A DNA stretch of 64,000 nt from NCBI RefSeq assembly GCF_013167455.1, contig NZ_CP038328.1; one strand, written 5' to 3'. Shown piece by piece: positions 52,601 to 55,600 of this stretch. The stretch's first letter is position 1. Each line of letters opens with the position of its first letter. Made by a program: the position numbers. This DNA comes from Escherichia coli O157:H7. GTDB lineage: Bacteria > Pseudomonadota > Gammaproteobacteria > Enterobacterales > Enterobacteriaceae.

Positions 52601-55600
52601 CCCCCATAACACTGTTTTTGGTTTTAACTGTTCCGCGTGCGCTCAGCCGCATTCACCGCATCACAAAATTCACTTTAAAAAGGGCGGCAGAGCAGTCACG
52701 GAGTAAAACTGATACCGCCAAACGTCACCAGAAAATTGATAACAGAGGGCGTTGCAGCGGGGTTGTCACTTAAGCGTATGGTCAACCTGACAACCCGGTG
52801 TCCTCAACGGGGGAAGGAATAACCCCTCCATACTTACCGCCGCGCCATTTCGCGGATTGCCACAACCGGAAGCGCACGGTCGACGAAAATTTAACGACAG
52901 GCTATCTATGAACCAGCTACCTCGCCGTGCGCTTTCGCGTTATGGTCTGACTTTTCAGGGAAATATCCTTTCAGTAAACTGTCAGTGCCGTATGCTCACC
53001 CGTGTCCGGCGCACGCACTCCACCTCACCCGTGGAGAACTCCTTAATTACCAACCTTAGCTTCGTTGGTTAGCTATTAACGCGGGTATGTAATCATTCTG
53101 GCAATGCTTAATGCCGCTGCTTTTTCCAGATTGGTGATATCCTGCTCCAGAGCGGACAGATTTTCAGCCTGCTTAGCCCTGGCTTCATTGGCCCATTTCA
53201 GATCCTGCGCTGCATTAATTTTCTGGTGCATCCACTCATAAAGTTCATCATCGGTATAGTCTGGCGCGATGATGACGGGTTCTCGTTTCTGCATGTCGGC
53301 TCCTTGTGGTTAGCGTTGCCTGCTTTTAACCACGTCAGGCGAGGTGGTATCCTCTGAGGGGTCTGTTACTCGAGAGGAAATTGGTTATGAATACAATCAA
53401 GTTTTCTTGCCCAGAATGTGGTGGCGAAGTCTTTGACACATCCTTTAAGCCGCAGGGCTCTGACAGTTTCGCGGGAGCCATCTGCAAAAATTGTGGTCAC
53501 CTTGTAACTGAAGATGAGTCCTCGCAGTTCGATGACGAAATCGTTGACAATATCTTCGGTGCACTCACCAGAGACTTTCTGAAGTAAAGGCGCATACCGC
53601 TTAGTTACCGCTCTGATAACTCTTACCTGTCCTGCAATGGCGCTGATGTCAATATAAAGCGCCATTGCTGCTTCTTTGCCGATCCCGGGATGCCTTCCAT
53701 TCTGATGTTTGACTTCGCCCACTGAGAAACCCTCTGTTTCCCCTTAACGCCGGGGTAGCGGAACAAAAAACTGCTGCATAGTTATTAAAGTTGAACCCTG
53801 CCGTCATGTTCATACGCCTCGGGCTGGCTACTTAACCCCTGACCACTGCCGGGTAACTCGAAGTATTTCCCTGCGTTCTGTGGGGCGGGGTGGGTTGGTA
53901 TTTTTAGTTTAATAAACATTAAACTTAAGTCAAGTAAAAACTAAACCGCGGGACATAACAAACACAACGCTTTTGATAAAGTCGTTGCGGTTGTTATGTT
54001 TCTATTGGTAGTGAAAGTTAGGGAAACTGGCGTCTTGCGTGGATCACGTTTACTACTTCAACGCTTGATGTTGTTACGCGGTATAGAATTATATAGTTAG
54101 GGTGGGCTACAATCTCACGCAAGCCAGGTACTCTGTCGCTTGGTGGGTATAAATACGGATGTTCGGATAACGGCAGCACACAACCCCTTAATCGCTGCCA
54201 TAAGCGTTCAGCCGCATCTATGTCGAAACGAGCAATATAACTAGTTATATCATCTAGGTCGGTATCTGCGCTTTCAAGCCATAACACGGGTAACATTTTA
54301 CTGCTTGCTCCGTTCCTTGCGCATCTTAGCAAAGCGTTCTGCCATTCTGCGCTCAACTTCGTCATGGGGAATTGCTGGGCGCGGATCTGCAAGGCTCGTT
54401 GCTACTTTCGCACGCAGCCATTCGTTGTAACTGTTTTCTTGTTCAATGGTTTCAAATTCAGAAACCATTGGTGAAAGGGCTCTATTCATGTTTCCTCCGG
54501 TTTTATAACTCAGGCGCGGCGGCATTTTTGCGCCGCAATCCATCTCGCTATGAGATCTTCCATTGATTCTTTTTTCTGCTTTAACTCGCTGATTATCTGG
54601 CGTTGCTCATCCTCAGGGAAGGCTGAAAAAATCTGCAATAATTCCAGTTGATTAGACGTTAACCCTGCATGTGGTGGAGAACCCCCCGGTTGTTCTGCGT
54701 ATTCCGCATCCAGATACCCTTCCGGCATCCCGTATGTTTGCTCTATTCTTCTGGCAGCCTTTTCTCCAAACGAGGCTCTCCCACTCATTAGTTGAGATAG
54801 GTAGCTCTTCTCTTTGGGTGGCAGAGTTTTATCTTTAAACCACTCCTTGAGACGTAAACGGCGAATTTCTTTTTTTTGCATGTGGTAATTATCTTTAGTA
54901 ATCACTAAACAAGCAAATACTTGACTTAATGGTTTATTAAACACTAAACTCGCAAAAAAACACTAAACCGAGGAAGGTATGACATTAAAAGAGTTTATTA
55001 AATCATTAAGGGTTGGTGATGCTAAGAAATTCGCGGCCAGACTTGGTGTATCGCCATCTTACTTATCGCAAATGGCGTCTGGACGAACAGCTATATCTCC
55101 AACCCGCGCCCTTATGATCGAATCTGCGACGGAAGGCCAAGTAAGTAGGGCGGAGCTACGACCCCATGATTGGGAGCTTATTTGGCCTGAGTATGCGAGC
55201 GGCATTCGTTTGGGGCAAACACATGTAGTTCATGCTGAAGGTGATTGTAGTGCATGCTTATCTGATGGAGTTGATTCATGAAAATCAAGCATGAACACAT
55301 CCGCATGGCGATGAATGTCTGGGCGCATCCGGACGGCGAAAAAGTACCGGCTGCGAAAATTACCAAAGCGTATTTCGAGCTGGGAATGACGTTCCCGGAA
55401 CTGTATGACGACAGCCATCCGGAAGCCCTGGCCCGTAATACCCAGAAAATTTTCCGTTGGCTGGATAAAGACACCCCTGATGCTGTTGAAAAAATGCAGG
55501 CTCTGTTACCGGCGATCGAAAAGGCGATGCCGCCTTTGCTGGTGGCCCGTATGCGCAGCCACAGTTCTGAATATTACCGTGAGATCGTCGAACGGAGGGA

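Follow-up and report, generated by a model that had tools for sequence, protein, structure and literature searches.

Re-identification of a known immunity-region operon, paaR2-paaA2-parE2, in a defective lambdoid prophage of Escherichia coli O157:H7

Introduction

The paaR2-paaA2-parE2 locus of E. coli O157:H7 was first described in 2010 (Hallez et al. 2010, Mol Microbiol 76:719, as summarised in PMC8630535); structures have since been solved for all three proteins (for PaaR2, the N-terminal domain), and the regulation of the locus was dissected in 2021-2023. The 2021 literature recast PaaR2 as a prophage CI analogue, not the private third component of a toxin-antitoxin (TA) module (Jurenas et al. 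2021, PMC8630535). A module that is homologous by description, paaR1-paaA1-parE1, resides on another O157:H7 prophage of the same strain, CP-933M (PMC8630535).

The layout of the locus resembles that of lambda cI-rexA-rexB, which likewise consists of a leftward leaderless repressor gene and two cargo genes, ends just before PL/OL, and lies opposite cro-like and cII-like genes that diverge from it; in both, the repressor has operators at two places and the switch is bistable (PMC8630535, PMC9986795). In contrast to lambda, however, PaaR2, YdaS and YdaT show no sequence similarity to CI, Cro and CII, PaaR2 lacks the RecA-sensitive peptidase domain of CI, there are four inverted repeats instead of three operators (PMC8630535), and the cargo is a ParE-type TA pair rather than RexAB. 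Classical parDE systems (RK2 ParDE; Caulobacter ParDE1, PDB 3KXE) resemble the locus in that the toxin is of ParE fold and family (PF05016), the protein antitoxin is sensitive to proteases, and post-segregational killing occurs. The difference is in the antitoxin: PaaA2 is a member of another family (PF21217) and lacks a DNA-binding domain, and autoregulation has therefore passed to a separate regulator. Another parallel is the DicA region of the K-12 prophage Qin, where the repressor gene is placed alike relative to dicB, DicF and ydfC, and where the C-terminus of DicA resembles that of PaaR2, whose gene has been assigned the dicA position (PMC8630535). The N-terminal DNA-binding domain of PaaR2, by contrast, is not detectably similar to that of DicA. 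K-12 Qin is not known to have a paaA-parE pair after dicA.

Results

The three genes and the identity of the locus

The window, as we use the term here, is the whole 64-kb stretch of O157:H7 DNA that was analysed. Within it, three minus-strand genes follow each other in the order regulator, antitoxin, toxin, and their translation makes the outer limits, 54018-54881, exact:

54510..54881, minus strand: paaR2, encoding a 123-aa HTH regulator, the CI analogue (MQKKEIRRL...; translation)
54298..54489, minus strand: paaA2, encoding a 63-aa antitoxin without a DNA-binding domain (MNRALSPMV...; translation)
54018..54296, minus strand: parE2, encoding a 92-aa ParE-family toxin (MLPVLWLES...; translation)

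At 100% identity, the three products match the O157:H7 proteins with crystal structures, namely PaaR2 (N-terminal domain), PaaA2 and ParE2, and, judging from the sequences, these matches to PDB entries are far beyond chance. Residues 1-66 of PaaR2 are identical to 7NKV/8C3K (E = 5e-41) and also to 8C3L, and the protein matches phrog_5736, a transcriptional regulator (E = 7e-39). PaaA2 is identical to 3ZBE/5CW7/5CZE (E = 5.5e-37), with the Pfam PaaA2 domain (PF21217, E = 1e-19) as the sole domain found and an NCBIfam match to NF050103 at 84 bits (cutoff 50). ParE2 is identical to chain B of 5CW7/5CZE (E = 7e-60), covers the Pfam ParE_toxin model (PF05016, E = 2e-16) at positions 1-89 of 89, and matches 3KXE, 6X0A, 5CEG and 8C24 weakly. 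The locus thus unites a ParE-family toxin, a PaaA-family antitoxin without a DNA-binding domain and a regulator immediately upstream on the same strand, the combination that defines the three-component paaR-paaA-parE systems. A Pfam search of PaaR2 detected no domain above threshold, Peptidase_S24 included, and the resemblance of its C-terminal residues 72-119 to the DicA C-terminus falls below the cutoff (NCBIfam, E = 1.4e-6); given the lack of a significant Pfam domain, the CI-like role of PaaR2 rests on experiments and on position, not on homology.

At the DNA level, a 1.1-kb region is 100% identical in many O157:H7 chromosomes, as are, in O157:H7, the 19-kb surroundings of the TA locus. 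Against O157:H7 strain OK1, which served as the annotation template, the whole window shows 99.98-99.99% identity, with differences at 7 positions only. Strain TR01 was dropped as a template: the window is only 99.1-99.6% identical to it and does not contain its IS1203 insertion, which in TR01 splits the exonuclease gene, exo, that is intact in the window. The module at 54018-54881 is the sole copy, with no second one within the 64 kb, and paaR1-paaA1-parE1 is absent from the window as well.

When the locus is set against paaR2-paaA2-parE2 of CP-933P (EDL933) and Sp12 (Sakai), the proteins, the DNA, the neighbours, the promoters and the operators are all the same, and the lack of any detected difference from the published locus means that the two are one. 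We are therefore nearly certain (probability of about 0.96) that this is the paaR2-paaA2-parE2 operon and that it belongs to the immunity region of CP-933P (Sakai Sp12), a defective lambdoid prophage. The locus is already known and well studied; the identification is correct and brings nothing new.

The initial annotation had arrived at the O157:H7 prophage system from the sequence alone, and its success amounts to a positive control: the proteins are identical to the characterised ones, the DNA is identical to that of many O157:H7 genomes, and the 63-aa and 92-aa products, on whose similarity to PaaA2 and ParE2 the assignment hinged, turn out to match them residue for residue. The lengths of 123, 63 and 92 aa, the gene order and the coordinates 54018-54881 were also right; the overlaps between the genes were not, and in their place there are gaps of 20 nt and 1 nt. 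The 20 nt lie between the TGA stop of paaR2 (54510-54512) and the paaA2 ATG at 54489, which is preceded by a GGAGG Shine-Dalgarno sequence at 54494-54498, and a single A separates the paaA2 stop TAA (54298-54300) from the parE2 ATG (54296), a 1-nt spacing that suggests translational coupling. A scan of the minus strand revealed no terminator-like site inside 54018-54881, and experiments have shown that the three genes form a single operon (PMC8630535).

The control region

Every regulatory element published for the locus was found, namely, the 97-bp region with PR and PRM, PL/OL, ydaS, ydaT and the YdaT operator:

54882..54978, between the divergent genes: OR, the 97-bp paaR2/ydaS control region with the PaaR2/YdaS operators
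54921..54950, plus strand: promoter PR933P, TTGACT-18-TAAACT, which drives ydaS-ydaT (promoter scan, in agreement with PMC8630535)
54888..54916, minus strand: promoter PRM933P of paaR2-paaA2-parE2, with the putative hexamers TTGCTT (54916-54911) and GATAAT (54893-54888) and a 17-nt spacer
53903..53951, minus strand: promoter PL933P and the OL operators, TTGACT-16-TAAACT at 53933-53906 (promoter scan)
54979..55281, plus strand: ydaS, encoding a 100-aa HTH_XRE protein, the Cro analogue (ORF)
55278..55703, plus strand: ydaT, encoding the 141-aa CII analogue (ORF)
55271..55288, plus strand: OM, the high-affinity YdaT operator, TTGATTCATGAAAATCAA, at the ydaS/ydaT junction
53953..53999, minus strand: inverted repeat I2, an imperfect hairpin of 22 bp that separates the parE2 stop from PL

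The length of the paaR2/ydaS intergenic region agrees with the 97 bp stated in the literature (PMC8630535). The window contains three GTTTAGTG half-sites, all of them in OR, at 54902-54910, 54941-54949 and 54960-54968. [quoted passage not shown] OR also contains a 24-nt direct repeat (54894-54917 and 54933-54956). The PRM933P hexamers are our own tentative reading of the sequence; for paaR2, 5' RACE places the transcription start at the A of its ATG (54881), and the leaderless start MQKKE has been shown experimentally (PMC8630535).

In the promoter scan, the hexamers of PL933P, a promoter described previously (PMC8630535), are the same as those of PR933P. Indeed, OL/PL933P repeats the OR/PR sequences, inverted, just downstream of parE2, with the OL/OR inverted repeats I1/I3 at 53907-53936 and 54918-54942 and the direct repeat D2 at 53931-53951 and 54953-54973. 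To the right, YdaS matches phrog_35, transcriptional repressor (E = 1.6e-23), in keeping with its function as the Cro analogue (PMC8630535), and YdaT matches phrog_163, CII-like transcriptional activator (E = 3e-47). The YdaT operator OM is the sole match in the window to TTGATTN6AATCAA, and both motif and location are as published (PMC9986795). To the left, the hairpin at 53953-53999 folds, as RNA, at -25.1 kcal/mol (z = -4.8; 0 of 200 shuffles as stable), and at the matching position in two variants of the cassette there are terminator-like hairpins of unrelated sequence; we infer that it is a terminator and that the operon transcript probably ends here, where lambda has tImm.

The arrangement is thus that of a lambdoid immunity region, with divergent repressor and anti-repressor genes, a shared operator region, a second OL/PL copy further left and, downstream of the cro analogue, a CII-type activator gene with its own operator. 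The S24 self-cleaving domain expected of an SOS-inducible repressor was not detected in PaaR2 by the Pfam search, and PaaR2 is reported to be devoid of the peptidase motif and unresponsive to mitomycin C (PMC8630535). The missing S24 domain, together with the missing response to mitomycin C, implies a switch that is CI-like and yet not SOS-inducible.

How the locus would work

In the scheme that follows, which is taken from PMC8630535 and PMC9986795, the identity of the parts and the presence of the cis elements come from the sequence, and toxicity, neutralisation, regulation, bistability and addiction from the literature. ParE2, a ParE-family toxin, would join the nucleoid and trigger the SOS response, as seen in its co-localisation with the nucleoid and induction of SOS (PMC8630535), and PaaA2, itself subject to degradation by ClpAP/ClpXP, would bind and neutralise it. 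Because PaaA2 cannot bind DNA, control of transcription would fall to PaaR2, the product of the first operon gene and the CI analogue, made from a leaderless mRNA that would begin at its own ATG (PRM933P). PaaR2 would bind the 97-bp region common to the divergent ydaS-ydaT operon and also the second operator set, at PL933P downstream of parE2, and its competition with YdaS would generate two heritable expression states. YdaT would switch on an extra promoter, PRE, with transcription running back into the operon, and activation of PRE933P by YdaT, yielding an alternative operon transcript, has indeed been described (PMC8630535, PMC9986795). Under this scheme, paaA2-parE2 is cargo that shares a transcript with the repressor and takes the place that rexA-rexB have in lambda; upon loss of the locus, PaaA2 would decay, and the freed ParE2 would kill or arrest the cell, that is, cause post-segregational killing. 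The toxicity of ParE2, its specific neutralisation by PaaA and the Clp-dependent killing after loss were published for identical sequences (PMC8630535 citing Hallez 2010). The locus is both bistable and addictive, stabilising an unstable plasmid, and, under steady conditions, no ParE2 activation was observed in either expression state (PMC8630535).

Prophage context and cassette variants

The gene map of the window matches that of CP-933P/Sp12, comprising an integrase remnant, xis, exo, dicB, DicF, ydfC, the TA operon, ydaS and ydaT, and, among further features, O-like and DnaC-like genes, hok/sok, rusA, Q and tRNAs. The integrase persists as short fragments only, and DUF1627 is frameshifted; Sp12 was found not to undergo circularisation, replication or packaging (PMC2669165). 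An antisense ORF pair at 53366-53722 shows 3 differences in 357 nt from phage Evi, which are too few to tell the coding strand.

Two other E. coli prophages have a PaaA/ParE pair that is 91-95% identical; one of these differs both in the N-terminal DNA-binding domain of the regulator and in the PL sequence, whereas the other has kept a 74%-identical PaaR2-like repressor, together with GTTTAGT-type sites. The conservation of the TA pair in both prophages, behind either kind of regulator, supports the view of the operon as a repressor plus cargo. In the variant cassettes of RM9245 and STEC2017-197, the N-terminal HTH domain of the regulators is unrelated, and about 50 C-terminal residues are conserved. 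E. coli RM9245 encodes a further HTH regulator, whose gene immediately precedes paaA-parE and follows a PaaR2-like gene that occupies the cI slot.

Discussion

The initial annotation saw here a functional toxin module inside a decaying prophage and the most plausible reason for the retention of that prophage, ParE2 killing the cells that lose the element. Its premises are sound: the integrase in fragments, the frameshifted DUF1627 and the inability of Sp12 to circularise, replicate or be packaged (PMC2669165) are signs of decay, and 'functional' is a fair description insofar as the genes do not differ in coding sequence from those proven toxic, neutralising and addictive and the published promoters and operators are intact. 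Moreover, the operon, and the whole ydaST-RAE2 region, stabilise an unstable mini-F plasmid by post-segregational killing, and the authors proposed that the module limits rearrangements of the immunity region, which is stable although Sp12 is inversion-prone (PMC8630535). As the main cause of persistence, however, addiction is a published but unproven proposal that we consider unlikely. With the integrase fragmented and no circularisation of Sp12 (PMC2669165), excision is already impossible in the absence of any addiction, so that the loss of the integrase accounts for the retention; other non-excising Sakai prophages, Sp3 and Sp11, have been retained too (PMC2669165); and addiction covers only module-linked DNA, whereas int and DUF1627 decayed regardless. 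Nor is the module confined to a decaying element: identical ParE2 and PaaA2 are encoded in potC prophages with intact int/xis (O111:H8 strain 8E and commensal M1/5), and the isolated coliphage Evi has a copy that is 98.8% identical and in which none of the three ORFs is disrupted. The module is present in about 594 genomes, as against only 296 with the left junction of the CP-933P/Sp12 prophage. Such a distribution, behind different repressors, in prophages with intact int/xis, in an isolated phage and, in about half of the carriers, without the junction, points to ordinary live-phage cargo, and we argue that the cassette is just that, the common cargo of a family of live phages and not a peculiarity of the decaying element.

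What this cargo does for its host is a matter on which we infer more cautiously. The original view of 2010, in which PaaR2 serves the TA genes only, as part of a self-contained three-component TA system unrelated to prophage control, could draw on the single operon, on the need for PaaR2 for proper repression and post-segregational killing (Hallez et al. 2010, summarised in PMC8630535), and on the second HTH regulator of RM9245, which could be TA-dedicated. That view has nonetheless become very improbable: PaaR2 mainly represses PR (ydaS-ydaT) and PL, with operators at OR and OL and a bistable relationship with YdaS, its gene sits exactly in the cI/dicA position, the PL sequence changes with the type of regulator while the TA cassette stays constant, and reporter, footprinting and single-cell data contradict it (PMC8630535). 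The pair might act as a lysogen-expressed defence or exclusion system akin to RexAB, ParE2 being freed upon infection by another phage and aborting that infection. The position of paaA2-parE2, that of rexA-rexB, and its co-transcription with the repressor (PMC9986795) speak in favour of such a role, as does the association of the cassette with repressors of different DNA-binding types and with an isolated phage, which is typical of prophage accessory genes; still, a PADLOC search yielded no defence-model match for any of the three proteins, the cited literature on the locus reports no phage-defence phenotype, and no activation of ParE2 was observed upon changes in transcription of the locus (PMC8630535), so that we rate defence as quite improbable. 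Returning to live-phage cargo, one speculative and rather doubtful elaboration is that paaA2-parE2 is a portable lambdoid-phage cassette, carried in the rexAB slot behind varied repressors, that would protect the immunity region, whether by killing recombinants with a swapped immunity type or by making infections with other phages abort. On that reading, the cassette would do its work in live phages, Evi among them, and would be more than a relic that holds a dead prophage in place.

The tandem regulators of RM9245 could be a trace of recombination in the immunity region. The idea that paaR2 itself is a recombinant of the two RM9245 regulators was unsupported, its C-terminus being, by eye, closer to the PaaR2-like gene than to the HTH-XRE gene, to which it is 54% identical.

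Identity and mode of action of the operon

The paaR2-paaA2-parE2 operon is real and, as the initial annotation held, already known; earlier work on it extends to crystal structures and operator footprints. Minus-strand translation reproduces exactly the outer coordinates, gene order, and three product lengths proposed there:

54510-54881, minus strand: paaR2, 123 aa
54298-54489, minus strand: paaA2, 63 aa
54018-54296, minus strand: parE2, 92 aa

The overlaps proposed along with them are absent: a gap of 20 nt separates paaR2 from the paaA2 ATG, which has GGAGG upstream, and the paaA2 stop and parE2 start are one base apart (TAAaATG), a spacing that suggests translational coupling of the two genes. 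The similarity of the 63-aa and 92-aa products to PaaA2 and ParE2 is clearly full identity, with PaaA2 matching every residue of the chain in PDB 3ZBE, 5CW7, and 5CZE (E = 5.5e-37) and ParE2 identical to ParE2 in 5CW7 and 5CZE (E = 7e-60). Residues 1-66 of PaaR2 are identical to the N-terminal domain in 7NKV, 8C3K, and 8C3L, deposited as 'phage repressor protein CI'. All three products thus match crystallized O157:H7 proteins, PaaR2 over these 66 residues, and the naming and location of the operon are correct. ParE2 and PaaA2 fall into the Pfam families ParE_toxin (PF05016, E = 2e-16) and PaaA2 (PF21217, E = 1e-19), and a Pfam scan of PaaR2 found no significant domain, the S24 peptidase domain included. 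Both the 1.1-kb toxin-antitoxin (TA) region and the surrounding 19 kb (45000-64000) are 100% identical to many O157:H7 chromosomes; compared with O157:H7 strain OK1, the window differs at 7 positions in 64 kb, with zero gaps.

The experimental steps come from the literature on sequences identical to the window genes. According to Jurenas et al. 2021 (PMC8630535), the toxin ParE2, a member of the ParE family, co-localizes with the nucleoid and triggers the SOS response. The antitoxin PaaA2 lacks a DNA-binding domain; its binding to ParE2 is cooperative, and ClpAP and ClpXP degrade the antitoxin. Transcription is set by the CI analogue PaaR2, which represses PR and PL and, at low level, apparently stimulates its own promoter PRM, with YdaS in the Cro role and YdaT in the CII role. 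The locus is described there as bistable and as stabilizing an unstable plasmid through post-segregational killing, and activation of ParE2 was observed in neither expression state. Compared with lambda, paaA2-parE2 takes the place of rexA-rexB, and PaaR2 that of CI, as stated explicitly by Prolic-Kalinsek et al. (PMC9986795).

Operators, promoters, and the end of the immunity transcript

All published regulatory elements are found in the window. Jurenas et al. (PMC8630535) describe a leaderless paaR2 mRNA that begins at the ATG; a 97-bp paaR2/ydaS intergenic region, bound by both PaaR2 and YdaS at GTTTAGT-type repeats; PL933P beyond parE2, with -35/-10 hexamers identical to those of PR933P; and PRE933P, between ydaS and ydaT, activated by YdaT. 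Here, exactly 97 bp separate paaR2 from ydaS (54882-54978), and all 3 matches to GTTTAGTG in the 64 kb lie within them; a repeat search recovers OR, the operator region between paaR2 and ydaS, and OL, its second copy beyond parE2, as repeats of one another. The promoters are:

54921-54950, plus strand: PR, TTGACT-18-TAAACT
53933-53906, minus strand: PL, TTGACT-16-TAAACT

We infer from the sequence that PRM is TTGCTT-17-GATAAT, with 6 nt between its end and the paaR2 ATG. The YdaT operator TTGATTN6AATCAA, as described in PMC9986795, has a single match in the window (55271-55288), at the ydaS/ydaT junction.

Between the parE2 stop and PL lies an imperfect 22-bp hairpin (53953-53999, minus strand; -25.1 kcal/mol, z = -4.8), in the same position as tImm of lambda; we found no mention of it in the consulted sections of the published descriptions of the locus. 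Two variant cassettes (L003, from E. coli RM9245, and L004, both at about 3930-3990) carry unrelated, terminator-like hairpins at this position: one is CCCTCTCAAGAGGGAGGG with TTATT after it, the other CCGTCTCATCTCGAGGCGG with TTTTTGTT after it. The immunity transcript probably ends at the window hairpin, a likely tImm analogue with a putative terminator function.

Just downstream of PL, there is a C-rich block (53870-53897, minus strand; ACCAACCCACCCCGCCCCAC). About 80% of its positions are invariant across four compared loci, a different immunity type included; a possible role is that of leader or antitermination-type element in the leftward transcript. Two overlapping antisense ORFs, each with one family match, follow:

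53366-53722, minus strand: 99-118 aa ORF; phrog_21318, E = 4e-67; annotated in the phage Evi record
53381-53587, plus strand: 68-aa CxxC...CxxC zinc-ribbon ORF; NCBIfam ECs_2282, E = 1e-15; annotated by RefSeq

The pair differs between Evi and the window at just 3 positions.

The prophage and its decay

The prophage is CP-933P of EDL933, equivalent to Sp12 of Sakai. Its gene map was obtained by transferring the OK1 annotation to the window and adding an Rfam scan:

up to ynfA: chromosomal genes (OK1 annotation)
about 48461-48547: rspA remnant (OK1 annotation)
48526-49208: integrase fragments, prophage start
49243-49494: xis
49567-52038: exonuclease, intact
between the exonuclease and the small zinc-ribbon gene: DUF1482/ydfD, dicB, DicF sRNA, ydfC
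52319-52507, minus strand: dicB, cell-division inhibitor gene
52682-52733, minus strand: DicF sRNA (RF00039, 76.7 bits)
between ydfC and the TA operon: small zinc-ribbon gene
54979-55281, after the TA operon: ydaS
55278-55703: ydaT
beyond ydaT: O-like and DnaC-like replication genes, frameshifted DUF1627 gene, hok/sok, rusA, Q, three tRNAs
59579-59903, plus strand: hok/sok, type I toxin-antitoxin (sok RF01794, 117 bits; hokD annotated about 59748-59903)
62669-62915 and 63692-63864: three prophage tRNA genes downstream of Q (annotated Ile, Arg, Arg) and a match to the sRNA family STnc100 (102 bits)

On its left, the prophage ends within rspA, at a junction close to 48545. The integrase survives only as short fragments (ORFs of 56 and 68 aa). 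Other E. coli genomes carry full-length integrase genes to which this remnant is 98-99.9% identical. Asadulghani et al. scored the Sp12 integrase as disrupted, predicted excision to be impossible, and detected no circularization, replication, or packaging of Sp12 (PMC2669165); the description of the prophage as decaying is therefore justified. Given the hok/sok system, ParE2 is not the sole toxin module of the element.

Distribution, variant cassettes, and retention

The module occurs in 632 of the 5426 complete E. coli genomes (594 of these with most of the 1.1-kb query), the left junction of this prophage with rspA/ynfA in only 296, and the 19-kb context in one piece in only 264. O111:H8 strain 8E and the commensal M1/5 encode ParE2 and PaaA2 under the same accession numbers in prophages at potC whose integrase and excisionase are full-length; in M1/5, exo and DUF1627 are intact as well. 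In phage Evi (LR597642), a coliphage from infant faecal samples (PMC10910852), the operon is 98.8% identical, with all three ORFs intact.

These observations bear on the proposal that the TA module is the dominant reason for prophage retention, which echoes the suggestion, in PMC8630535, that the TA stabilizes the immunity region. We consider it unlikely: the integrase is lost and Sp12 showed no circularization, other non-excising Sakai prophages are kept too (PMC2669165), the module occurs equally in apparently intact prophages and in a live phage, and addiction safeguards nothing beyond the DNA to which the module is linked. Its position makes a RexAB-like defense function of paaA2-parE2 conceivable, but PADLOC and the publications consulted lend it no support.

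The mildly new material is comparative only: the association of the cassette with different repressors, the two regulators in tandem in RM9245, and the hairpin whose position after parE is conserved. E. coli STEC2017-197 and RM9245 have a PaaA/ParE pair with 91-95% identity to that of the window, and the regulator directly upstream of paaA has an HTH-XRE N-terminal domain unrelated to PaaR2, only the C-terminal ~50 residues being conserved (52-54% identity); in STEC2017-197, the PL sequence differs as well. RM9245 (NZ_CP044314.1, 3989-5289) has tandem regulators upstream of paaA-parE, namely, a 123-aa PaaR2-like protein (74% identical) in the cI slot, with GTTTAGT-type sites kept, followed by a gene for a 153-aa HTH-XRE protein with a PaaR2-like C-terminus; the extended end of this gene runs 32 nt into paaA. 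The tandem arrangement may be a recombination scar between prophages of different immunity type. The comparative pattern as a whole is the one expected with the regulator as immunity repressor and the TA pair as portable cargo.

Additional features of the window

The excisionase adjoining the integrase is annotated xisR in some K-12-related records, and DicF and dicB lie on the PL side (52319-52733, minus strand), as in the K-12 Qin prophage. IS1203 splits the prophage exonuclease in O157:H7 strain TR01 (L001, 15749-17054) and is absent at window positions 50954-50960; in strain 8E, it likewise lies in the homologous exonuclease of the potC prophage. The beta-glucuronidase gene uidA and uidC are frameshifted pseudogenes in the OK1 annotation (window 7711-9524 and 10933-12197), the uidA frameshift being a classic O157:H7 marker.
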